Assembly: GCA_022826005.1 (NCBI GenBank)
Contig: JAJDVT010000058.1
Span: forward strand, 6,605 to 70,604
Reading direction: 5' to 3'
Length of the DNA stretch: 64,000 nucleotides
Source of the DNA: Gemmatimonadota bacterium
GTDB taxonomy: Bacteria > Gemmatimonadota > Gemmatimonadetes > Longimicrobiales > Gaopeijiaceae
A program made the position numbers and the translations under genes. Shown here in pieces: positions 3,323 through 19,190 of the stretch (position 1 is the first letter of the stretch; each line of letters starts with the position of its first letter). The notes under the pieces are model-generated. The model had not been told where the DNA came from, searched no databases, and saw only the letters and a program-made list of their open reading frames with translations.

Positions 3323-4564
3323 TCAGGGCAGAAGGAGTTGCCTTGCCGTCTCCACCGCCGCCGCGAGCCGCTCTATTTCTTCGTCGCTGTTATAAAGGTA
3401 GAAGGATGCCCGGACCGTTGCCGAAACGTCGAAGCGGTCGACCACCAGCTGGGCACAGTGGTGGCCGGCGCGCACCGCGATTCCCTGGGCATCGAGTATC
3501 GTTGCGACATCCTGGGCGGAAGCCCCTTCCAGCACGAACGGCACCACTCCGGCGCGGCCAGCGAGGTCGGTGGGCCCGAGGATGCGGATGCCCTCCACCT
3601 CGGAGAGAAGCGAAACCGCCCGGCGGGTCAGCGACATCTCGTGCCGGTGTATGTTTTCGATTCCCACGCCTTCGAGATAGTCGGCGGCGGCGGCCAGGCC
3701 CACCGCCCCGGCGATGTTGGGCGTGCCCGCCTCGAACTTGTGGGGCACCTCCGCCCAGGTACTGTACTCGCGAAAGACCCGTTCGATCATCTCTCCGCCC
3801 CCCTGGTACGGGGGCATTCCATCCAGCAGCGACCGCCTGCCCCACAGTCCGCCGATACCGGTCGGGCCGCACATCTTGTGGCCGGAAAAGGCATAGAGAT
3901 CACAGCCCAGCGCCTGGACGTCGAGGGGGAGGTGGGGTGCTCCCTGTGCGCCGTCGAGGATGAAGACCGCGTCGCTCCTGCTCCGGACAAGCGCGCCGAT
4001 CTCCTGCACCGGATTGATGGTCCCCAGCGCATTCGAGACGTGCGGAAGCGACACGACCCGGGTGTGCGGGCCGAGCAGCGAGGACAGGTGGTCGAGGTCG
4101 AGGCGGCCGTCGTCGGTGAGGCCGGCGTAGCGGAGACGGATCCCCCTGCGGGCGGCCAGCAGCTGCCACGGCACCAGGTTGGAGTGGTGCTCCATCTCGG
4201 AGATGACGACTTCGTCGGCGGGGCCGAGGCCTTGGCCCAGCGAGGACGCGACGAGGTTCAGGGCCTCGGAGGTGCCCCGCGTCCAAACGACTTCGTGTGC
4301 GTCGGCCGCGTTCAGCCAGCGTGCGATCCGTTCGCGCGAGCCTTCGTACGCTTCGGTGGCCCGGCGGGCCAGTTCGTGCACGCCCCGGTGGACGTTGGCG
4401 TGGTCGCGAAGGTAGTAGCGGCTGATCGCATCGATGACCTGGCGCGGCTTCTGGGAGGAAGCGGCGCTGTCCAGGTACACCAGTGGCTTCCCGTCCACGG
4501 TCTGGTCGAGGACGGGAAAGTCCCGCCTGATGGCGGCGACATCCAGGGCGACGGTCTGCCTCAC
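3323..4564 (-). CDS. sufS: cysteine desulfurase SufS (class V aminotransferase fold)
   Basis: 413 aa. Contains LDSAASSQKP, HEMEHHSNLVPW, the PLP-lysine region FSGHKMCGPTGIGGLWGR and the C-terminal RAGHHCAQ active-site Cys loop. Last gene of the suf cluster. Confidence 0.93.
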   Translation of the reverse strand: MRQTVALDVAAIRRDFPVLDQTVDGKPLVYLDSAASSQKPRQVIDAISRYYLRDHANVHRGVHELARRATEAYEGSRERIARWLNAADAHEVVWTRGTSEALNLVASSLGQGLGPADEVVISEMEHHSNLVPWQLLAARRGIRLRYAGLTDDGRLDLDHLSSLLGPHTRVVSLPHVSNALGTINPVQEIGALVRSRSDAVFILDGAQGAPHLPLDVQALGCDLYAFSGHKMCGPTGIGGLWGRRSLLDGMPPYQGGGEMIERVFREYSTWAEVPHKFEAGTPNIAGAVGLAAAADYLEGVGIENIHRHEMSLTRRAVSLLSEVEGIRILGPTDLAGRAGVVPFVLEGASAQDVATILDAQGIAVRAGHHCAQLVVDRFDVSATVRASFYLYNSDEEIERLAAAVETARQLLLP

Positions 4565-4597
4565 CTTGCCCGGTCAGCCGGGTTCATCCGCTGGTTG

Positions 4598-4936
4598 CTA
4601 TTCAAGCCGCAGATAGACCCCGCCGTCGCGGACTTCCACCTCGAAGGTCCGCACAGGCGTGACTGCGGGCAACCGGGTGGCCCTGCCGGTGCAGAGATCG
4701 AACCGGGCGCCGTGGAATATGCACTCCACCTCGCCGTCTTCGAGTTCCCCGGCCGAGAGCGGATAGTCCTGATGCGAGCAGCGGTCCTCGAGCGCGTAGA
4801 TCCTGCCTTCGACACTCGCGAGCACGACGGGTCCCCGGTCGGTCGACACCGGGGTGAGTTCGTTCGGCTGCACCTCCTCCGCCGACGCCACTCTTGTCCA
4901 CGGAGCCTCCGTGCCGCGGGTCTTCCTGCGAAGCAT
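4598..4936 (-). CDS. Rieske (2Fe-2S) ferredoxin-like protein
   Basis: 112 aa with the CSHQ...C-IFHG Rieske ligand pattern (C-x-H ... C-x-x-H). Sits between sufD and sufS. Confidence 0.85.
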   Translation of the reverse strand: MLRRKTRGTEAPWTRVASAEEVQPNELTPVSTDRGPVVLASVEGRIYALEDRCSHQDYPLSAGELEDGEVECIFHGARFDLCTGRATRLPAVTPVRTFEVEVRDGGVYLRLE

Positions 4937-4940
4937 CGCC

Positions 4941-6317
4941 CTACCCGTGCAAGTGCCGCAGCTTCGCCCGGATCGCCCTGGTGACCTTCTCGGTCACGCC
5001 ACCCAGCGGCAGCCTGTCCAGCACCTCTCCGAGGAACCCGAGCACCACCAGGCGTTCGGCCTGCTCACGGTCCAGTCCGCGGCTCATCAGGTAGAAGAGC
5101 GACTCGGCGTCGAGCTGGCCCACGGTGGCGCCGTGCGAGCAGCGCACGTCGTCGGCACCGATCTCGAGGTTGGGCAGGGAGGTGGCGACGGCGTCGTCCG
5201 ACAGGATCAGGTTGCGGTTGGTCTGGTAGGCGTCCGTCCGCTGCGCGCCCTCGTGAACCCGGATGATGCCCCGGAAGACGCCGCGGGCCGATCCGTCCAG
5301 CGCCCCCTTGTACAGGAGGTCGCTGTGCGCGTCGGGCGCCACGTGGTCCTGGCTCGTGTTGAAGTCGAAGTGCTGGTCCTCGTCTCCGAAGTAGAGGCCC
5401 AGCATGTCGCTGTTGGCCCCGGGACCGAGGAGCCGTGCGTTCAGATCGACGCGGCCGACCGACCCCCCGAGCGCGACGTTGAGGGTGTCTAGGGTGGAAT
5501 CGCGCTCCGCCAGGGTGCGCTGGGTGGCGAGGTAGAATCCGCCCCGCCCCATGCGCTGCAGCGACACGTACTGCACCTGGGCGCCCCCCCGCGAGAAGAG
5601 CTCGACGGCGGTGTTGGCCAGCGTGGTCGACTCGAAGTCGGGAGACGTGATCTCGTCCACGAACGAGACCTGGCTGAACTCCTCGGCGACGATGAGGATG
5701 CGTGTGAAGGTCGCGGTGCCCGGCCGCGACACCCAGCGACTGAGCCGGATGGGTTCATCGAGACGGACGCCCTTCGGAACCCGCAGGAAGACCCCGTCCG
5801 TCCAGAGCGCGGCGTTGAGCGCCGGGAACTTGCCCTCGGAAGCGGGTACGGCCCGGGTAGCGAGGAGTTCCTCGACCACGGGGTCGCCGCTCCTCGCGGC
5901 CTCGCGCAGCGAACAAAGCACCACACCCTGCGCCGCCAGCGCCGCGTCCAGCTCCACCGACACGACGTGCCCGTCCACGTCCACGACGCGTCCGGAACTC
6001 GCCGGGTCATGGGCCATCGTGCGGAGCAGCCCATCGGGGACTGTTCCCCGGGATGGACCGCCGACGCCGGGCACCAGGTCGCCATCCGGCGCCCCGCCGG
6101 CCCCCTCCAGGTTCGGCTCCAGCCCATCCAGCGGCAACAGCCGCCCGACATCCGTGTAGCGCCACTCCTCGGAGCGAGTCGAGGGAAGTGGCGTGGCCAC
6201 GTAGAGGTCCCACGCTTCCTCGCGGCGGGCCTTCAGCCAGGCGGGATCCGCCAGCCCCGTCTCCAGCACCGCGTCCCTGTTCAGCGCGCGCGCTGCACGT
6301 TCCCTTGGCGGCGCCAT
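4941..6317 (-). CDS. sufD: Fe-S cluster assembly protein SufD
   Basis: The track ORF 4941..7031 over-extends into sufB. The in-frame ATG at 6317 (MAPPRERAARALNRDAVLETGLADPAWLKARREEAW) lies 5 nt after the sufB stop. The C-terminus is typical of SufD (DAYQTNRNLILSDDA...[23 protein letters not shown]). Confidence 0.88.
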   Translation of the reverse strand: MAPPRERAARALNRDAVLETGLADPAWLKARREEAWDLYVATPLPSTRSEEWRYTDVGRLLPLDGLEPNLEGAGGAPDGDLVPGVGGPSRGTVPDGLLRTMAHDPASSGRVVDVDGHVVSVELDAALAAQGVVLCSLREAARSGDPVVEELLATRAVPASEGKFPALNAALWTDGVFLRVPKGVRLDEPIRLSRWVSRPGTATFTRILIVAEEFSQVSFVDEITSPDFESTTLANTAVELFSRGGAQVQYVSLQRMGRGGFYLATQRTLAERDSTLDTLNVALGGSVGRVDLNARLLGPGANSDMLGLYFGDEDQHFDFNTSQDHVAPDAHSDLLYKGALDGSARGVFRGIIRVHEGAQRTDAYQTNRNLILSDDAVATSLPNLEIGADDVRCSHGATVGQLDAESLFYLMSRGLDREQAERLVVLGFLGEVLDRLPLGGVTEKVTRAIRAKLRHLHG

Positions 6318-10666: not shown

Positions 10667-11266
10667 TTGCTCCCCGACCTTGAGCGGGAGCTTCTGCGAA
10701 AGTGCCAGCGGGGCGATTCCCGTTTCTTCGAGCCGATCGTGCGCGCCTACGAGCCCGCGGGCATGAGGGTGGCGCTCGGCATGATGGGGAACCCGGACGA
10801 TGCGCGGGACGCGCTCCAGGACGCTTTCGTGAAGACCTGGCAGACGCTGGGGCGCTTCGATCTGAAACGTCCCTTCGGACCGTGGTTCTTCCAGATTCTC
10901 CGAAACCAGTGCCGGGACGCGCTGCGGAAGCGCAAGGCGAGGTTTCGGCGGGAGGCTCTTGACGAAAGGCTGGAAATGAGGCCGGCGGATCCCGAGAGCT
11001 GCCCCGAGCGGCACAGGGAGCGCCGGGCCGCCAGGGAGCGCGTCTGGACGGCGCTGGAACAACTGAACGAAGACCACAGGGAGATTCTCGTATTGAAGGA
11101 GATCGAGGGATTTCGCTACGGCGAGATCGCAGGCATACTGGGCATACCGGAGGGGACGGTGGCCAGCCGTCTCTTCCACGCGCGCCGGGCACTGGCGGCG
11201 GTGCTGAGGGGTACGGATCCGCGAACGGATGGCGGCCGCGGCGGCCGCGGGAGGACTGGCAGATGA
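10667..11266 (+). CDS. ECF-type RNA polymerase sigma-70 family factor
   Basis: TTG start preceded by GGGAGG. Region 2 (DARDALQDAFVKTW...FGPWFFQILRNQCRDALR) and region 4 (REILVLKEIEGFRYGEIAGILGIPEGTVASRLFHARRAL). Confidence 0.9.
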   Translation: MLPDLERELLRKCQRGDSRFFEPIVRAYEPAGMRVALGMMGNPDDARDALQDAFVKTWQTLGRFDLKRPFGPWFFQILRNQCRDALRKRKARFRREALDERLEMRPADPESCPERHRERRAARERVWTALEQLNEDHREILVLKEIEGFRYGEIAGILGIPEGTVASRLFHARRALAAVLRGTDPRTDGGRGGRGRTGR

Positions 11267-11697
11267 ACAGCAATGTGCCAGCAAAGGTGGAACGCGAGGA
11301 CCTGATGCGGTTCCTCGACGGCGAGGTCACGCCCGAGGAGCGGGCGGTTGTCGAACAATACCTCGAGACGTCGAGCGAACTTCGCCGGGAGGTGGCGATC
11401 TTCCGGTCGATGAAGGAGGAGCTGCAGGGTCTCTCCTTCGCCCCGCACGGCGGGGACTCGCTGTGGAACCGGATTCGCGCCCGCATCACCGTACCGACGG
11501 GGTGGGTGCTGACGGGTTCCGGCCTGGTGGTCTGGGCGGGCTACGGAGTCTGGGCCTTAGTGAGGTCACCGTCGGGGATCCTGATGAAGCTGGCGACCGG
11601 AGGGATCGCGATCGGCGTCCTGGTCCTGCTCGCCCACGTAATCCTGGACAGGGTGCGGGAGTTCGGGACGGATCCCTACCGGCACGTCCACCGATGA
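11263..11697 (+). CDS. membrane anti-sigma factor (putative)
   Basis: ATGA overlap with the sigma gene. The N-terminus (DLMRFLDGEVTPEERAVVEQYLETSSELRREV) resembles anti-sigma N-terminal domains and is followed by two hydrophobic segments. Confidence 0.7.
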   Translation: MNSNVPAKVEREDLMRFLDGEVTPEERAVVEQYLETSSELRREVAIFRSMKEELQGLSFAPHGGDSLWNRIRARITVPTGWVLTGSGLVVWAGYGVWALVRSPSGILMKLATGGIAIGVLVLLAHVILDRVREFGTDPYRHVHR

Positions 11698-12041
11698 TCG
11701 TTGCCACAACGGAGAAGGCCTCGGGGTACACGGTCGTGCGCACCCTGGGCCTGGTGCGGGGCAGTTCGGTGCGCGTGCGGCACGTAGGAATGGACCTGAT
11801 TGCGGGCCTGCGCAACCTGGCCGGTGGCGAGGTCTACGAATACACCAAGCTGCTCGCCGAGGTGCGGGAGCAGGCGGTCGACCGGATGATCGCCGAGGCG
11901 GAGGCGCTCGGCGCGAACGGGATTCTGGCGGTGCGGTTCCAGTCGGCCGAGGTCAGCCGCGCTGCCGCGGAAATGGTGTGCTACGGGACCGCGGTGAAAC
12001 TGCGTCCCGAGGCGAGCGTGCCTGCGATGCAGGGCGAGTAG
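11694..12041 (+). CDS. YbjQ / UPF0145 family protein
   Basis: 115 aa starting at an ATG that overlaps the anti-sigma stop (ATGA). MIVATTEKASGYTVVRTLGLVRGSSVR...GGEVYEYTKLLAEVREQAVDRMIAEAEALGANGILAVRF is the typical YbjQ pattern. Confidence 0.85.
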   Translation: MIVATTEKASGYTVVRTLGLVRGSSVRVRHVGMDLIAGLRNLAGGEVYEYTKLLAEVREQAVDRMIAEAEALGANGILAVRFQSAEVSRAAAEMVCYGTAVKLRPEASVPAMQGE

Positions 12042-12098
12042 GGCCGGCATCCCCGGCACCTGGCCGCCTGCGGTACCATGCGCGGGTTGTCCAGGGGC

Positions 12099-12755
12099 CT
12101 ACTCCCCGGCGGCCTCCGCACGCTGCCGCGTCCAGTGTCCCATCTGCATCTGGTGAATCCGTCTGACGATCACGAGGAGGACCAGCACCAGCGCAACGTC
12201 GAAGCTGGAGATTGCTATTTCGTAGAGAGCATCCACCCGCTCCGCCCGCGGCCCCTCCATGTCCTGCGTCGCCGCCAGGGACGCCAACCCCAGCCCCCAG
12301 AACGGAATGAGCCAGAGCGCCCACCACCAGCCGAGCAGCGGTGACCCGCCCTGCTCCTTCCAATCCTGCGGATCGGCGCTCGCCTTCCAGATCTCCTTCA
12401 TGGCCTGGTACGGCTTCCAGAACCACGCGATCGGCATGAAGTACCACCCGACCGCCGCTCCCGGCGAGAAGGCCAAGCCCGAGGCGCCCAGCCGGCGGGC
12501 GTTGTAGTTGGCGCGATAGATCCACGAGAGGACGAGGATCGCAGTGCCGAGCATCACCCCCATCTCGAACAGACCCCAGAGGATCCCTGCCGCCAGCCAC
12601 GCCGCCAGCGATCCATCGTAGCCGAGGCCGTAGGTGACGTAGGCGCTGTTCATGTAGACGTGAACCAGCGATGTCGCCAGATAGGCGTAAAGAAAACCCC
12701 GCGTCCATTTGGTGAGGGCGGTAGGATCGCGGAAGCCGGCATCCTGCTCACTCAT
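12099..12755 (-). CDS. DUF4328 family membrane protein (paralogue 1 of 3)
   Basis: 218 aa, multi-TM. Core WIYRANYNARRLGASGLAFSPGAAVGWYFMPIAWFWKPYQAMKEIWKAS matches my memory of DUF4328. 8-nt overlap (ATGAGTGA) with the upstream paralogue. Confidence 0.85.
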   Translation of the reverse strand: MSEQDAGFRDPTALTKWTRGFLYAYLATSLVHVYMNSAYVTYGLGYDGSLAAWLAAGILWGLFEMGVMLGTAILVLSWIYRANYNARRLGASGLAFSPGAAVGWYFMPIAWFWKPYQAMKEIWKASADPQDWKEQGGSPLLGWWWALWLIPFWGLGLASLAATQDMEGPRAERVDALYEIAISSFDVALVLVLLVIVRRIHQMQMGHWTRQRAEAAGE

Positions 12756-13392
12756 GGTCGAACTCCCCGGTGCTACGGGTACGGTAGTGTGCCATCTGCA
12801 TCATGTGCACGCGGTTGATGATGCTCACGAGGACCAGCGTCAGGGGGATGCGGAGTACTTCGCGGACGACGTCGGAGATGCTTACGGCCGCCTCCGTGGA
12901 AACCGTCCAGGATATCCCCTGGGCCCCGGTGGTCAGGAGCCACAGACCCCACCACAGGGTAAGCAGAGCCGGCGTCTCCTCCTTCCACCACCGGGAGGGA
13001 CGGACGCTGGCCCGGCAGATCTCCTTCATCGCCTGATACGGCTTCCACAGGGAGGCAAGCGGGATGAAGTACCAGCCCACCGCCCAACCCGGCGTGAATT
13101 GCATCCCCTCAGCACCCAGTGCCCGTGCGTTGTGGTTGGCGCGGTGAATCCAGGCAAGCACCAGAATCGCGGCGGCCACCGTGACAATCGCGGTCGGCCC
13201 CACCAAGAGCACGAGGAGCGATCCAAACGCATCCCTGGCAGGGGCGGGCTCGCCGGTATTCGCCAGGTACTGATAGTCCCGCCAGCTCGCGGCAACGGAC
13301 ACGAGGGCGAGCGGGATGCTTGCATACAGCAAGCCCTTCGTCCACCTGGTCAGTTCCCTGGGATCCCGGAAGGGGGCATCGCGTTCATTCAT
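12748..13392 (-). CDS. DUF4328 family membrane protein (paralogue 2 of 3)
   Basis: 214 aa. Core WIHRANHNARALGAEGMQFTPGWAVGWYFIPLASLWKPYQAMKEICRAS. 8-nt overlap (ATGAATGA) with the upstream paralogue. Confidence 0.85.
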   Translation of the reverse strand: MNERDAPFRDPRELTRWTKGLLYASIPLALVSVAASWRDYQYLANTGEPAPARDAFGSLLVLLVGPTAIVTVAAAILVLAWIHRANHNARALGAEGMQFTPGWAVGWYFIPLASLWKPYQAMKEICRASVRPSRWWKEETPALLTLWWGLWLLTTGAQGISWTVSTEAAVSISDVVREVLRIPLTLVLVSIINRVHMMQMAHYRTRSTGEFDHE

Positions 13393-14155
13393 GATCGGAT
13401 CTCTGGTCTCGTTGCGACTGGAAGTGAGCCATCTGCATTTCGCGAACCTTCAGGATGATCGTCAGCAGAAGCAGCGTCAACGGAATGTGGAGCAGGCCGC
13501 CCGCGAGGCGTATGGCCCCTCCGACAGCTTCCCTGTCGCCCGGTTCGAGCGCCAGCAATGCGACGCCGGACGCCAGCAAGCCACCCCACGCAGCCGTTAC
13601 CCAGAGGGCCCACCACCAGCCCACAAGCGGTGAGCCGCGTTGCCGCCGCCAATCGGAAGGGCATACGCTCGCCTGCCATATTTCCTTCATCACCTGGTAC
13701 GGCTTCCAGAAGAGCCCCGGAGGCACGAAATACCATCCCGCCGCCCATTCGGGCGCGAACCTCATGCCGGAGGCCCCCAGTTGCCGCGCGTTGTGGTTGG
13801 CGCGGAGCGTCCAGGCGGGCACCAGCAACATGGTGCCGTACAGCACCACCATCCGGAGGGTCCACGAGATGGCCCCGGGGATGGATGAAAGCTCGGGCGC
13901 GTTCCCGGTTCCTGACTGGTCAATGGCGCGGATGCAAAGTCGTGCGACCACAATCGCCAGATGTGCGTACAGGAAGCCTCGGGTCCACCGGGTGAGACGC
14001 GTCGGGTCGGTGAAACCGGACCGGTAACCGGTGATGACTCTCCCCAGGGATCGATGGTCGTGTAGCGCGGCGGCGGCGGATGCACTCCTGGCCTGCACCA
14101 GCGCATAGAGAATGATCCGCTTGCAGTCCGCCAGCCGGGCCAGGACCGCCTTCAA
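13385..14155 (-). CDS. DUF4328 family membrane protein (paralogue 3 of 3)
   Basis: Core WTLRANHNARQLGASGMRFAPEWAAGWYFVPPGLFWKPYQVMKEIWQAS. There is no ATG upstream of the domain. The candidate starts are TTG 14155 (TTGA overlap with the methyltransferase stop, with high GC3 continuing to there) or GTG 14098. The track ORF extending to 14581 overlaps the methyltransferase and is rejected. Confidence 0.7.
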   Translation of the reverse strand: MKAVLARLADCKRIILYALVQARSASAAAALHDHRSLGRVITGYRSGFTDPTRLTRWTRGFLYAHLAIVVARLCIRAIDQSGTGNAPELSSIPGAISWTLRMVVLYGTMLLVPAWTLRANHNARQLGASGMRFAPEWAAGWYFVPPGLFWKPYQVMKEIWQASVCPSDWRRQRGSPLVGWWWALWVTAAWGGLLASGVALLALEPGDREAVGGAIRLAGGLLHIPLTLLLLTIILKVREMQMAHFQSQRDQRSDHE

Positions 14156-15138
14156 GGCGCGGCCGCCGGGAAGCCCACACACTCCGGTCCGAAACCGGCC
14201 AGTCTCGCGGCCATGACGCGCGCGGCCTCGGGGTTGGAGTCCACGAGGACGTATTTGCGTCCGTTGCGGGCCGACGCCTCGCCCGTGGTTCCGCTGCCGG
14301 CGAAGAAGTCGAGCACGGTGTCTCCGGGGTTCGAGTGCACCTTGACGATACGTTCGAGCACGCCCAGGGGCTTCTGTGTGGGGTATCCCGTCTTCTCGCC
14401 TCCGGTGGGGCTGACGATGGTGTGCCACCACACGTCGGTGGGCGTCTTGCCGCGGGCGGCCTTGGCCTTGCCGACCAGGCCGGGGGCCATGTAGGGGATG
14501 CGGTCCATCTCGCCGAAGTTGAAGGTGTAGTCGGCGGGGTCGCGCGCGTACCAGAAGATGGTCTCGTGCTTGGCGGGCCACTTGCGCTTCGGGCGGGCTC
14601 CGTAGTCGTAGGCCCAGATGATCTCGTTCATGAACGACGCGCGCCCGAAGATCTCGTCGAGGAGGATCTTGCAGTAGTGGGCCTCGCGGTAGTCGATGTG
14701 CAGGAAGAAGGAGCCGGTGGCGGTAAGGATCCGGTGCGCTTCGCGGAGGCGGGGCGCGAGGAAGGCGAGGTAGTCGTCGTGGCGGTCGTCGTAGCCGCTC
14801 TTGCCGAGGACGGTCGTCCGGTAGCGTGCGCCCTGGAAGCCGGTGCGGTCGCCGCTGGGGTCGCGTTCGACCCGGATGCGGGTACGGTTTTGGGTCTTGC
14901 CGGTGTTGAAGGGCGGGTCGATGTAGATGAGGTGGGCGGAGCCCGGCGCCATGTCGCGCAGGACGGGGAGGTTGTCAGCCAGAATGATGGTGCCGGATGG
15001 GCCGTCCCGGGGCCCCGCGTCCTCACCACCGGAGCGGGCGCCGGACTGGGCCAGGGGTGTATCGGCCAGCTGCCCCGGGCAGTCGGACTCGGACGCAGGC
15101 GGGCCAGCCGGGCGCCCCACGGAGCCGGATTCAGCCAT
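14152..15138 (-). CDS. site-specific DNA methyltransferase, beta-class N6A/N4C family (orphan)
   Basis: 328 aa. Motif IV IYIDPPFNTG (DPPF at 14908-14919) precedes the SAM-binding motif I VLDFFAGSGTTGEA near the C-terminus, which is the beta permutation. I find no restriction endonuclease candidate nearby. Confidence 0.88.
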   Translation of the reverse strand: MAESGSVGRPAGPPASESDCPGQLADTPLAQSGARSGGEDAGPRDGPSGTIILADNLPVLRDMAPGSAHLIYIDPPFNTGKTQNRTRIRVERDPSGDRTGFQGARYRTTVLGKSGYDDRHDDYLAFLAPRLREAHRILTATGSFFLHIDYREAHYCKILLDEIFGRASFMNEIIWAYDYGARPKRKWPAKHETIFWYARDPADYTFNFGEMDRIPYMAPGLVGKAKAARGKTPTDVWWHTIVSPTGGEKTGYPTQKPLGVLERIVKVHSNPGDTVLDFFAGSGTTGEASARNGRKYVLVDSNPEAARVMAARLAGFGPECVGFPAAAP

Positions 15139-15187
15139 GGTCCCGTCGTCCGCGCACCCCCGGGGGTCCGGCAGCCTCGTGGCTCTC

Positions 15188-16816
15188 CTAGTTCCCCCCG
15201 TTGTCGGAGACCGCCCGCTCCTCCTTCGCCTTCCTGACCATCTCGCGCACGTCGGCCAGCAGTTGCCGCGCGTCGTAGACGATGCCGTCCTTGATCGTGT
15301 ACCTGATGCCGCCGACGCGCTCGGTCTCGCCGGTCTCGTCGTTGAGCTTCACCGCACCGTTGCCGTACAGGACCTTGAGGTTCTGCAGCGGGTTCTCGTC
15401 CACGACGACCAGGTCGGCCTTGAGGCCGGGGCGAAGGATGCCGAAGTCGATGCTGGTGCCCTTCGGGTCGTGGAGCTCCTCGGCACCGAAGAGGGTGGCC
15501 GAGCGGATCACCTCGACGGGGTGGAAACCGGCTTCGCGGAGCAGTTCGAGCTCGCGGATGTAGTCGAAACCGTAGAGCTTGTAGATGAAGCCGGAATCTG
15601 AGCCGGTCGTGACGCGGCCGCCGGCGTTCTTGTAGTCGTTGAGGAAGTGCATCCACTTCTGGAAGAACCGCTTCCAGTGATACTCGTCCTCGGTGGTCCA
15701 GTAAAACCAGTAGGAGCCGTGGGCGCGCCGGGACGGCTGGTAGAAGTCCCACTGGCTCGGCAGCGTGTACTCCTCGTGGAAGTCGGCCTCGCGGGAGCGC
15801 ATCACGTCGCGGCTGGCCTCGTAGATGGTCATGGTGGGGTCGATGCCGAAACCGAGTTCGAGGAAGCGGTCGATGAGGTCGTTCCACTGCTCGGAGCCGG
15901 GCTCGGCGGCCTGGTTCCAGAGTCGGCCGACGTTGCCGAAGCGGTGCTGCTCGTCCTGATAGTTGTAGTCGAGCGGCCAGTCCTGGACGCTGTAGTCGGT
16001 CAGCATGGACTCGAAGAGCCCGTAGTAGTGGGTCATCATGTCGAGGCCGACCTCGGCGGCGTCGAGCGCGGTCATGCGCACCACGCCCATCTGGCCGAGG
16101 TGGGCGACGGTGCCGAGGCCGTACTTGTGGGCCTCGTCTATGACGGCGGCCATGATGTCGGGGTCCATGGCGCCGAGCTTGAGGCCGTCGATCTTCGCGC
16201 CGTCCACGTCGACCCCGACAGCCCACTGCACCCACTCGCGCGCCTTCTCGGGGGAGTCCACGGGGCCGCGGTCCCAGGCCTCGCCGGGGCGGGCGTAGGT
16301 GAACATGCGCGGCGCGACGATCTCGTTGCGCTCGGCCGCCGCCTTCTCGCCGAGCGCCCACATCATCGGGCCGTGACCGACGCCGCGCGAGGTGGTGATG
16401 CCGTGCCCCATCCAGAGCTTGTAGACATACTCGGGCTGGGGCGCCTTGGGGTTGCCGCCGGTGTGGGCGTGCATGTCGACGAAGCCGGGCATGACGTACA
16501 TCCCGGACAGGTCGATCGTCTTCGTGGCGCCGGAGGGGCGGCGGTCCTCGTCGATGGGCACGCCTGGATATCCAACTGTCTGGATCTGAACTATGCGATC
16601 GCCCTCGATCACGATATCCACGGGTCCCATCGGCGGGGCGCCGGTGCCGTCGATGATCGTGGCGCCACGGAGGATGAGCCGCTCGTGGGGGCCGTCGCCC
16701 TCGTCTGCGCCGCGGGGGGTGGTGGGCTGCATCTGCGCGGAGAGAGCGGGGGAAATCGCGGCGGCGCCGACCAGCGCCATGGCGAACACGCGAGGCAGGA
16801 CGCGCGGGGACTTCAT
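15188..16816 (-). CDS. secreted amidohydrolase family protein
   Basis: ORF 15188..16945 trimmed to ATG 16816 (MKSPRVLPRVFAMALVGAAAISPALSAQ), which is preceded by AGGAGG. GFVDMHAHTGG metal motif and the C-terminal GSDSG...LKADLVVVDENPL pattern of the amidohydrolase superfamily. Confidence 0.85.
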   Translation of the reverse strand: MKSPRVLPRVFAMALVGAAAISPALSAQMQPTTPRGADEGDGPHERLILRGATIIDGTGAPPMGPVDIVIEGDRIVQIQTVGYPGVPIDEDRRPSGATKTIDLSGMYVMPGFVDMHAHTGGNPKAPQPEYVYKLWMGHGITTSRGVGHGPMMWALGEKAAAERNEIVAPRMFTYARPGEAWDRGPVDSPEKAREWVQWAVGVDVDGAKIDGLKLGAMDPDIMAAVIDEAHKYGLGTVAHLGQMGVVRMTALDAAEVGLDMMTHYYGLFESMLTDYSVQDWPLDYNYQDEQHRFGNVGRLWNQAAEPGSEQWNDLIDRFLELGFGIDPTMTIYEASRDVMRSREADFHEEYTLPSQWDFYQPSRRAHGSYWFYWTTEDEYHWKRFFQKWMHFLNDYKNAGGRVTTGSDSGFIYKLYGFDYIRELELLREAGFHPVEVIRSATLFGAEELHDPKGTSIDFGILRPGLKADLVVVDENPLQNLKVLYGNGAVKLNDETGETERVGGIRYTIKDGIVYDARQLLADVREMVRKAKEERAVSDNGGN

Positions 16817-17000
16817 CCTGGGACCTCCTGGGTTGGCTGAGTTGGGCCGGCGTCCGAGGCTGGCCCGGTCATGGGGTACGGAATCTGAATAGTAGCCGCA
16901 TGGTGGGGACGAGAACAGGACGGCGGGGCGGGATGGCAGCGACATTGGGGATGCGGCCGGACCGGCAGGCGTTCAGCGCGGTCCGCACCAAAGGAGAGCC

Positions 17001-19190
17001 GTGACGGCCTGTGCCCTTCCCCGGGAGGCGCATGCGGCGATAGCGTTGACAATGACTCCCGACGAACGCGGCCAGGCCGCGCCGGATACGCTTGGCCACG
17101 AGGAGGCCGCCGCCGAGATCGCTCGGCTGCGCGCCGAGGTCGATCGCCACAACCACCTCTACCATGTGAAGGCGGCGCCCGAGCTCTCCGACTCCGCCTA
17201 CGACGACCTCTTCCGGCGTCTGCAGGCGCTGGAGGCGGCCCATCCTTCGCTGGCGACACCCGATTCGCCCACGCAGCGGGTGGGAGCCGACCCTCTGGAG
17301 AGCCTTCCAAACGTTGAGCACGTCGTACCGATGCTCTCGCTGGACTCGGCGCACGACATCGACGCGGTCCGCCGCTTCGACGAGCGGCTGCGGAAAGCCC
17401 TGGATGACGACGAGGTCAGCTACGTGCTGGAGCCCAAGCTGGATGGGGCTTCGCTCGAGCTGGTGTACGTCAACGGGGTCCTGGAACGCGCGGTGACCCG
17501 TGGGAACGGCCGGGTTGGCGAAGGCGTAACCGAGAATGTGCGGACCATTCCGTCGGTCCCGCTCCGTCTTGGCGAAGACACGCTTCCAGCGCCGGCGTTT
17601 CTGTCAGTGCGGGGCGAGGCCATCATGTACCTGGGTGAATTCGAGAACCTCAATCAGCGGCGCATCGAGGCCGGGGAGCCGCCCTACCAGAACCCGCGCA
17701 ACGCAACGTCCGGCGCACTCCGCCAGCTCGACTCGCGGATCACGGCGACGCGGCCGCTGACCGTGCTCGCCTACGACGTGATGGAGGTGGAAGGGGCGGA
17801 CTTCGCGACGGACTCGGAGGGACTTGCGGCGCTGAGGGCCTGGGGGCTGCGGACCCCGGAGCGGATCCGCGTGGCGGAGTCGGTGGAGGAGATCGCGGAG
17901 TACCACCGGGCGTTCGACGCCGACCGCGAGTCGCTCGATTATGAGATCGACGGCGTGGTGGTGAAGCTGGACGCGTGGGGGCCGCGGGAGCGACTTGGGA
18001 GCACGTCGCATCATCCGCGCTGGGCGATCGCATACAAGTTCGAGCCGCGCAAGGAGGTCACGCGGATCGACCGGATCTTCGTGTCGGTCGGGAGGACGGG
18101 TGTGTTGACCCCGGTGGCGCTGCTGCGGCCGGTGGAGGTGGGCGGGGTGACGGTCTCGCGGGCGTCACTGCACAACCGCGAAGAGCTGGAGCGGAAGGAC
18201 TTGCGCGAAGGCGACCAGGTGCGGGTGCAGCGTGCCGGGGACGTGATCCCCCAGGTGGTGGAGCGGATCGCGGAGGAGGGGAGGGGGCGGGGGGAGGCCT
18301 TCGTCATGCCGGACGAGTGCCCGTCGTGCGGCACCGAGCCCGTCGAGAAGGGGCCGTTCACGGTCTGTCCGAACCATTTCGCCTGCCGCGCGCAGCTGAA
18401 GGGGCGAATCACGCATTTCGGGTCGCGAAACGCCCTGGACATCGAGGGGCTGGGGTCGGAGACGGCGGCGCTGCTCGTCGACGAAGGACTGGTGAATGAA
18501 CTCGCCAACATCTTCGACCTGACGGAGGATGACCTGGTTCCGCTGGAAGGGTTTGCCGAAGTCTCCGCGCGCAACCTGGTCCGGGCGATCGGGGAGCGTC
18601 GCAGCGTCGAACTGGGCAGGTTCCTGGTGGGGTTGGGGATTCCCGAGGTGGGGGTGGCCGTGGCCGCGGACCTGGCCGCCCACTTCCGCAGCGTGGACGC
18701 GATCCGGGGGGCGGCGCCGGAGGAGATGGAGGAGATCCACGGGGTGGGGGAGAAGATGTCGGCCGCGATCCGGAACTTCCTGGATGAGCCGCGGGTTGCG
18801 GAAGCGCTGGACAGGCTGATGGCGAAGGGCATCAAGCCGACGGCGCCACCTGTGCGGGAGGCGGGCGGGGACGGGGAGACGGATGGGCCCGAGAGCCCCT
18901 GGGCGGGGAAGAGGGTCGTGTTGACCGGGGCGCTCGAGACGTTCTCGCGGAGCGAACTCAAGAAGATCCTGCAGCACTTGGGCGCCCGGGTGACGGGTTC
19001 GGTCAGTGCTCGGACGGACCTGGTGGTGGCGGGCGCAAACCCGGGGTCGAAGCTGGCGAGGGCGCGGGAGCTGGGGGTGGACCTGGTGGACGAAACCGAA
19101 CTGCGAAAGCGGCTGGACGCGAGCGCCGGCGGGCGGGGAGGCTCCGGCGACGGCGGCGACGCTTCCGCCGCGGACGCGGCCACGCGGTGA
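17001..19190 (+). CDS. ligA: NAD-dependent DNA ligase LigA
   Basis: GTG start preceded by AAGGAG. Adenylation motif EPKLDGAS, zinc finger CPSCG...CPN..C, HhH region and a C-terminal BRCT (GKRVVLTGALETFSRSELKKILQHLGARVTGSVS). Confidence 0.93.
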   Translation: MTACALPREAHAAIALTMTPDERGQAAPDTLGHEEAAAEIARLRAEVDRHNHLYHVKAAPELSDSAYDDLFRRLQALEAAHPSLATPDSPTQRVGADPLESLPNVEHVVPMLSLDSAHDIDAVRRFDERLRKALDDDEVSYVLEPKLDGASLELVYVNGVLERAVTRGNGRVGEGVTENVRTIPSVPLRLGEDTLPAPAFLSVRGEAIMYLGEFENLNQRRIEAGEPPYQNPRNATSGALRQLDSRITATRPLTVLAYDVMEVEGADFATDSEGLAALRAWGLRTPERIRVAESVEEIAEYHRAFDADRESLDYEIDGVVVKLDAWGPRERLGSTSHHPRWAIAYKFEPRKEVTRIDRIFVSVGRTGVLTPVALLRPVEVGGVTVSRASLHNREELERKDLREGDQVRVQRAGDVIPQVVERIAEEGRGRGEAFVMPDECPSCGTEPVEKGPFTVCPNHFACRAQLKGRITHFGSRNALDIEGLGSETAALLVDEGLVNELANIFDLTEDDLVPLEGFAEVSARNLVRAIGERRSVELGRFLVGLGIPEVGVAVAADLAAHFRSVDAIRGAAPEEMEEIHGVGEKMSAAIRNFLDEPRVAEALDRLMAKGIKPTAPPVREAGGDGETDGPESPWAGKRVVLTGALETFSRSELKKILQHLGARVTGSVSARTDLVVAGANPGSKLARARELGVDLVDETELRKRLDASAGGRGGSGDGGDASAADAATR

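Follow-up and report, generated by a model that had tools for sequence, protein, structure and literature searches.

The window analysed here is a stretch of 64,000 nucleotides (nt) from a Gemmatimonadota bacterium of the family Gaopeijiaceae (GenBank assembly GCA_022826005.1, contig JAJDVT010000058.1, positions 6,605 to 70,604 of the forward strand), and the public sequencing runs that contain its sequence are sponge metagenomes. Its GC content is 65-71%, that of the genome being given as 67%. Between positions 12099 and 15138, a gene for a DNA methyltransferase (hereafter methylase) and three tandem genes for DUF4328 proteins, which we call D1, D2 and D3, form a four-gene string on the minus strand, in the order methylase, D1, D2, D3, with stop/start overlaps of 4, 8 and 8 nt. 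A preliminary description of this locus had proposed that the methylase is chained to a triple membrane module, and its coordinates for the methylase, the sequence motifs and the three overlaps all proved correct on the minus strand. As surveys of both gene families indicate, the arrangement most likely reflects chance gene order in one lineage and not a dedicated methylase-membrane system. The string has the following features, with lengths in amino acids (aa).

14152..15138, minus strand: putative solitary beta-class DNA methyltransferase of the N6-adenine type, 328 aa (Pfam, PADLOC and M.RsrI matches)
14908..14919, minus strand: motif IV, DPPF (catalytic), residues 74-77, read from the sequence
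14281..14307, minus strand: motif I, FFAGSGTTG (S-adenosylmethionine binding), read from the sequence; FFAGSG, residues 278-283, aligns with FFAGSG of M.RsrI
14152..14155, minus strand: TTGA, in which the methylase stop TGA overlaps an in-frame TTG, the candidate start of D1
13385..14155, minus strand: DUF4328 paralogue D1, 256 aa counted from TTG 14155, with an N-terminal extension of ~45 aa
13854..14123, minus strand: segment of D1 absent in near-identical strains (in-frame 270-nt deletion)
13385..13392, minus strand: ATGAATGA, start of D2 overlapping the stop of D1, an overlap also kept in locus L081
12748..13392, minus strand: DUF4328 paralogue D2, 214 aa (Pfam DUF4328)
12748..12755, minus strand: ATGAGTGA, start of D3 overlapping the stop of D2; GGGGAG precedes the ATG by 7 nt
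12099..12755, minus strand: DUF4328 paralogue D3, 218 aa (Pfam DUF4328; AlphaFold2 model)

The Pfam assignments proposed for all four genes were borne out. The methylase matches N6_N4_Mtase (PF01555) with E = 1.8e-48 and 165.8 bits (cut-off 26.7) over profile positions 2-218 of 221, and DPPF lies N-terminal to FFAGSG, which is the order of the beta class. Among proteins of solved structure, M.RsrI is the closest (E = 3e-27, 99 bits). Among PADLOC models only generic methylase models match, including MTase_II PDLC03300, a REBASE-derived Type II methylase model, with E = 3.8e-132. The motif DPPF rather than SPPF, and closest relatives that comprise M.RsrI, Mod subunits and CcrM, point to a probable adenine (N6) rather than N4-cytosine specificity. 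Solitary beta-class relatives include CcrM and YhdJ. By NCBIfam the window enzyme is not an equivalog of either, scoring 72.4 bits against 830 with NF050803 and 102.1 against 292 with NF008572.

The methylase had been described as an orphan, and this holds well beyond its own neighbourhood. An open reading frame (ORF) and Pfam survey found no restriction-enzyme or nuclease candidate in the window, which carries neither a second methylase nor a further DUF4328 gene. A survey of the family with one genome per species yielded more than 588 loci, and the neighbourhood results come from the best 80 of these. The proteins of the best 80 are 61-86% identical to the window enzyme and derive from Gemmatimonadota, Thermoanaerobaculia (Acidobacteriota), Acidobacteriaceae, Chloroflexota, Planctomycetota, Spirochaetia, Poribacteria, Myxococcota and Proteobacteria, many of the loci being in metagenome-assembled genomes (MAGs) from sponges. 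At least 8000 clusters in the protein database are homologous at E <= 1e-30, and the best annotation among them is 'site-specific DNA-methyltransferase (adenine-specific)'. Clustering of the flanking ORFs showed that neighbours of the best 80 are conserved within clades only, the Acidobacteriaceae having a housekeeping synteny of their own. Sampled neighbours include leucyl-tRNA synthetase, FloA, HEAT-repeat, HAD hydrolase and aminotransferase genes, and no recurrent restriction enzyme, nuclease partner or remnant was found across the 80 loci. On this comparison the enzyme is a true orphan in a very large, strongly conserved family of solitary methylases.

No simple repeats suggestive of phase variation were found in or near the methylase gene, and a literature search for orphan methyltransferases of sponge symbionts brought up no relevant work. 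Sponge MAGs of unrelated phyla (L006, L007, L009 and others, from the lineages Thermoanaerobaculia, Poriferihabitaceae, Poriferisocius and Poribacteria) carry methylases 69-79% identical to that of the window, and the enzyme from Thermoanaerobaculia is as close to it as are some copies from within the clade. This suggests that the methylase has been exchanged among sponge symbionts.

The three downstream genes all score well above the Pfam DUF4328 (PF14219) cut-off of 27.2 bits, D1 with E = 6e-21 (75.1 bits), D2 with E = 1.7e-25 (89.9 bits) and D3 with E = 4.8e-26 (91.7 bits). Their proteins are 40-47% identical in pairwise comparison and have the common core noted earlier (RANxNAR...GWYFxP...WKPYQxMKEIW) between diverged peripheries. 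The corresponding DNA repeat units have 60-72% identity, which marks the duplication as old. The start of D1 is ambiguous from the sequence alone, as its frame is open upstream to 14581, into the methylase gene. The peptide read from TTG 14155 (K-AVLARLADCKRIILYALVQ..., AVLxRLAD...) is also found in the D1-type genes of L082 and L083, which lie at another locus that has no methylase and begin with ATG, and the extension is present in L081 as well. Because it is conserved at a methylase-free locus behind an ATG start, the extension of ~45 aa is taken to be coding. These comparisons give good support to a predicted start at TTG 14155 or just before it, with GTG 14182 as an alternative. GTG 14098 was rejected as a start, since it would truncate the conserved extension.

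Whether a methylase and DUF4328 genes belong together can be judged from either family. From the methylase side, a DUF4328 gene lies within 6 kb in the three closest loci (L001-L003) only, and is absent from the other 77 of the 80 loci (L004 included). From the DUF4328 side, 77 loci were surveyed, of which 53 are non-syntenic with the window (Palauibacter, other Longimicrobiales, Gammaproteobacteria, Campylobacterota and more). A single copy of the gene is present at 66 of the 77. About 20 of them have a methylase directly upstream, and every one of these occupies the same chromosomal slot, in which the gene order is LigA, amidohydrolase, methylase, DUF4328 array, and then YbjQ, anti-sigma factor, extracytoplasmic function (ECF) sigma factor and a tetratricopeptide repeat (TPR) protein. 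No DNA methylase was found near the 53 non-syntenic loci, where a regular-expression screen returned only rRNA methyltransferases and a CPBP protease. Neither survey found the pairing outside this one slot of one clade, be it in non-syntenic contexts or in distant taxa. Confinement to one slot in one clade indicates that the adjacency reflects one evolutionary event in sponge-associated Longimicrobiales. The preliminary description had named the frequency of tandem copies and of methylase neighbours as a check on its functional methylase-membrane module, and the counts speak against such a module from both sides.

The borders of the slot in the window are formed by the genes listed here.

15188..16945, minus strand: amidohydrolase (Pfam Amidohydro_1 and Amidohydro_3), conserved left border, 49 nt upstream of the methylase and co-directional with it
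11700..12041, plus strand: YbjQ gene (Pfam YbjQ_1, E = 8e-31), conserved right border, convergent, last of the ECF/anti-sigma/YbjQ string
11263-11697, plus strand: anti-sigma factor, zf-HC2-like, with a 4-nt ATGA overlap with the ECF sigma gene at 11263-11266
10667-11266, plus strand: ECF sigma factor, in the convergent string downstream of D3

The amidohydrolase gene keeps its position in every one of the 27 related loci that include this flank, and by ORFs and Pfam the LigA gene lies beyond it in divergent orientation. The convergent stop codons of D3 and the tightly packed ECF/anti-sigma/YbjQ string are 57 nt apart, and the folding of this spacer between D3 and ybjQ is no better than that of shuffled sequence (z = -0.72). 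At the other border, the 49-nt spacer between amidohydrolase and methylase contains a perfect 12-nt palindrome, ACCCCCGGGGGT, at 15156-15167, which may form a hairpin or bind a protein.

Comparison of the slot in 27 species-level genomes reveals that its contents vary. The DUF4328 genes number 0 (L004), 1 (at least 12 genomes), 2, 3 (the window and L081) or 4 (L084), and sister taxa differ in copy number (L089/L119, L084/L150, L136/L144 and L113/L155). In a domain tree the D1-, D2- and D3-type sequences form distinct old orthogroups that occur in differing combinations: D2-type only in L144 and L150, D3-type only in L108, D2 with D3 in L118, and D1 with D2 in L001. The D1-type gene also stands alone at the non-slot locus of L082 and L083. 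Variation extends to the level of strains, as contigs near-identical to the window in runs X5 and X6 join position 13853 to 14124 in frame. This 270-nt deletion removes ~90 codons (D1 residues ~12-100, which span the extension, helix 1 and part of helix 2) and is a strain-level polymorphism.

The methylase is missing on four separate branches that have kept DUF4328 (L084, L117, L108 and L135), and the converse case is provided by L004, with a methylase and zero DUF4328 genes. In L084 a clean deletion begins just past the stop of the amidohydrolase gene and spares only the last 57 nt of the methylase gene, and L117 retains a 56-nt internal remnant of the methylase gene. The methylases of the slot group together in a single clade, with a branching order roughly like that of the flanking genes, taken as a proxy for the species tree, which indicates a single acquisition followed by vertical descent with occasional loss.

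Several further observations concern individual slots. The breakpoints of the L084 deletion (4940-5010 of that locus, equivalent to removal of window positions 15171..14210) share a short GAGRCTG-like microhomology, and the expanded array of the same locus has four DUF4328 ORFs, of which the first is apparently frameshifted. In L003 (3920-5913), the amidohydrolase and the methylase are separated by three tandem paralogous ORFs of 195, 203 and 195 aa, whose N-termini resemble signal peptides and whose C-termini resemble beta-barrels. The slot is therefore a hot spot for insertions and also takes other tandem envelope-gene arrays. The methylase frame is split into two ORFs in L112 and L120 (~4100-5050), both short-read MAGs, and is intact in their sister L121; the split copies represent either a pseudogene or an assembly error.

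Rates of evolution were estimated for orthologue pairs by the method of Nei and Gojobori as the ratio of non-synonymous to synonymous change (dN/dS). The methylase gives 0.11-0.31 and the D1-D3 orthologue pairs 0.15-0.41; against L081 the values are 0.39 for D1, 0.41 for D2 and 0.15 for D3, and D2 against L118 gives 0.33. Because every dN/dS is below 0.42, all four genes are judged functional and under purifying selection. In the comparison with L118, identity is 93% for the methylase (dN 0.034) and 78-95% for the flanking genes, but 69% for D2 and D3 (dN ~0.19). Non-synonymous change in the DUF4328 genes of the slot is 2-6 times faster than in the flanks. Fast membrane genes beside a conservative methylase are not the pattern of a co-evolving module. 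The methylase behaves instead as a conserved solitary enzyme, in an evolutionary regime different from that of the genes downstream. This behaviour and the lack of the adjacency in relatives outside the clade are two of the outcomes that the preliminary description had named as counting against its reading.

The chaining of the four genes proposed in the preliminary description has held up better. The overlapping stop and start codons make joint transcription and translation of all four genes probable in this genome, and the methylase is likely to be co-expressed with D1-D3. In at least eight related species the methylase stop overlaps the first DUF4328 start by 4-11 nt, irrespective of which orthogroup comes first, and other related species have a gap of 11-180 nt. 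Contigs from one sponge metatranscriptome tile D3, the D2/D1 junction, D1 and the junction of the methylase 3' end with D1, which is consistent with co-transcription. A scan of 11600-17100 for sigma-70 promoters and intrinsic terminators found none, which is uninformative at 67% GC.

An AlphaFold2 model of D3, built from a 49-sequence alignment, has a pLDDT of 90.8 and a pTM of 0.86. It consists of four long helices (12-42, 50-88, 139-163 and 168-217) and two short ones (98-105 and 110-127) inside the invariant loop, so that DUF4328 is modelled as a four-helix membrane protein of multi-pass helical architecture. In the D3 sequence and model, basic residues are concentrated at the N-terminus, in the loop 81-139 and in the C-terminal tail. 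This distribution predicts an N-in/C-in topology with the conserved aromatic and basic loop facing the cytoplasm. The cytoplasmic fusion partners at both ends of DUF4328 proteins (kinase, GYF_2 and zinc ribbon; DarT) agree with this topology. Foldseek comparison of the D3 model with the PDB and with BFVD, a collection of viral predicted structures, returned nothing with E below 0.2.

The family is large, a profile search giving 13,550 DUF4328 representatives at 50% identity. The commonest N-terminal fusion in long members is GYF_2 (17 of 49), and further fusions involve zinc ribbons, a Hanks-type kinase, DnaJ and a C-terminal Lcl_C. One DUF4328 protein carries a C-terminal DarT single-stranded DNA ADP-ribosyltransferase, and two carry an N-terminal Hanks-type Ser/Thr kinase (P0308, P0242 and P0383). 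These partners suggest that DUF4328 may be a membrane anchoring or sensing module with a role in signalling or in the anchoring of effectors. D1-D3 have no match in PADLOC-DB 2.0, PHROGs or NCBIfam, nor did a tblastn search with D3 find one in 50,697 phage records. A full-text literature search on DUF4328 (PF14219, IPR025565) found no mention of the family, in keeping with the earlier statement that it has no known function.

Neighbourhoods of DUF4328 genes are heterogeneous and mostly housekeeping, the 135 flanking ORFs hitting 142 Pfam families. No recurrent partner was found among these ORFs, clustering of which shows within-clade synteny only. A minority of contexts is mobile or defence-like and, with the fusions, hints at a possible sensor or conflict role. 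In Marinarcus (L109/L161, 3002-4678) and Aliidiomarina (L131, 4136-5756), the gene immediately before DUF4328, in the same orientation, encodes an AbiJ_NTD4 protein, and other loci have a HigB toxin with an Mrr nuclease, a transposase, or a phage-type Dam on the contig. The Marinarcus pair adjoins an integrase and a ParE toxin. The two hosts are unrelated, and the AbiJ-like proteins of Marinarcus and Aliidiomarina have diverged beyond what tblastn can connect. In the Palauibacter group (L088, 5725-6588, and also L092), a gene for a CPBP/Rce1-like intramembrane protease follows the single DUF4328 gene after 20 nt.

We consider it probable that the locus is a historical, clade-restricted juxtaposition of a solitary adenine methylase and an autonomous DUF4328 array of variable copy number, the two being probably co-expressed and functionally separable. 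The methylase would have entered the slot between the amidohydrolase and the ybjQ/anti-sigma/ECF genes once, in the ancestor of the clade, and would have been inherited vertically thereafter. Its most likely activity, by analogy with other solitary methylases, is genome-wide methylation of a fixed short motif. The array would have gone on shifting in number (from 0 to 4) and make-up between close relatives. We infer that each DUF4328 gene yields an independently acting four-helix inner-membrane protein whose termini and invariant loop are cytoplasmic, and D1-D3 may be alternative or additive versions of one module with no fixed heterotrimer. The 'fortuitous operon', one of the options that the preliminary description had listed, is thus the one favoured by the data.

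Several points weigh against this reading. In most species of the clade the first DUF4328 gene, of whatever type, overlaps the methylase stop or begins almost directly after it, and the adjacency has persisted over a range of 72-98% flanking-protein identity, which could reflect selection for co-expression rather than inertia. The single DUF4328-DarT fusion couples the module to a DNA-modifying effector, and a link between DUF4328 and DNA modification may be conceivable on first principles. The metatranscriptome contigs, finally, are ~92% identical to the window and stem from a related strain, DNA carry-over and methylase-deleted variants being possible sources.

Of the alternatives, the one that survives best, and that we nevertheless regard as unlikely, is a conflict or defence module in which the DUF4328 proteins would act in phage exclusion, abortive infection or immunity as rapidly diversifying membrane sensors or effectors and the methylase would serve for self-marking or epigenetic control. 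The two- to sixfold faster non-synonymous change relative to the flanks would suit such a role, but dN/dS values of 0.15-0.41 give no sign of positive selection on whole genes. Similarly, the AbiJ_NTD4 genes of Marinarcus and Aliidiomarina, the HigB and Mrr genes, the transposase, the phage-type Dam contig and the DarT fusion are of the kind expected, yet most DUF4328 neighbourhoods are housekeeping and the family is unmatched in PADLOC, PHROGs and the phage records. Variation of copy number between relatives and the strain-level 270-nt deletion in D1 also fit, as does the recurrent overlap of methylase stop and DUF4328 start; set against these are the independent losses of the two components and their co-occurrence in one syntenic slot only. 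We likewise doubt that DUF4328 is an unrecognised membrane sensor or effector of conflict systems, as the DarT and Hanks-type kinase fusions and the AbiJ pairs might be read, with the array a set of diversifying cassettes tied to methylase expression.

Less probable again is the hetero-oligomer of fixed stoichiometry that had been proposed for the three paralogues, in which D1, D2 and D3 would enter one assembly and translational coupling would set their proportions. The 8-nt D1/D2 and D2/D3 overlaps are kept in L081 and all three genes are under purifying selection. However, slots hold from zero to four genes, and close relatives have D2 alone, D3 alone, D1 with D2, D2 with D3, or four genes. 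A common core with diverged peripheries would be expected of such subunits, but near-identical strains lack 90 codons of D1, and the single copies at 66 of the 77 DUF4328 loci show that members of the family work with no paralogue beside them. A decaying remnant of a restriction-modification or mobile system, whose partner nuclease was lost and whose gap the DUF4328 genes filled, is very improbable and was rejected because no nuclease lies near any homologue: the very high score with PDLC03300 and the insertions at the hot spot (the three extra tandem genes of L003) are outweighed by the lack of a nuclease partner or remnant in the best 80 loci across phyla, by strong purifying selection on the methylase (dN/dS 0.11-0.31), and by vertical inheritance over the whole history of the clade, as expected of a functional solitary enzyme.

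The juxtaposition that we favour reveals no new methylase-coupled membrane system, and the interest of the locus lies in its two components. The methylase family, present in many sponge symbionts and in soil Acidobacteriaceae and devoid of a nuclease, is a candidate conserved epigenetic regulator, the target motif of which could be read from existing long-read sponge metagenomes. The variable array of the clade supplies natural variants with 0 to 4 copies for testing the role of DUF4328.

Comparison with known systems places each component in turn. The methylase has the DPPF-then-FxGxG order and the full-length Pfam match of M.RsrI and the beta-class PF01555 enzymes, and its family is unusually conserved among beta-class N6-adenine methyltransferases, with 61-86% identity across phyla. 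Like CcrM and YhdJ it has no adjacent nuclease, although by score it is not their orthologue. It matches the methylase models of Type II restriction-modification systems, but in place of a cognate endonuclease it is flanked by an amidohydrolase and DUF4328 genes, and no endonuclease lies beside its homologues in other phyla. D1-D3 share the invariant pattern W..R...N...P....G..F.P....WKPY....E with 49 diverse members of PF14219. They differ from this mostly single-copy family in forming three diverged tandem copies here, and four in one relative, and D1 is set apart by its clade-specific N-terminal extension. Arrays of bacteriocin-immunity or Abi/CPBP paralogues resemble the DUF4328 array in their coupled, diverged paralogues, variable copy number and faster-than-flank evolution. 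The DUF4328 array differs in having no toxin, bacteriocin or secretion genes nearby and no kinship in sequence or fold with known immunity families; the likeness is one of pattern only.

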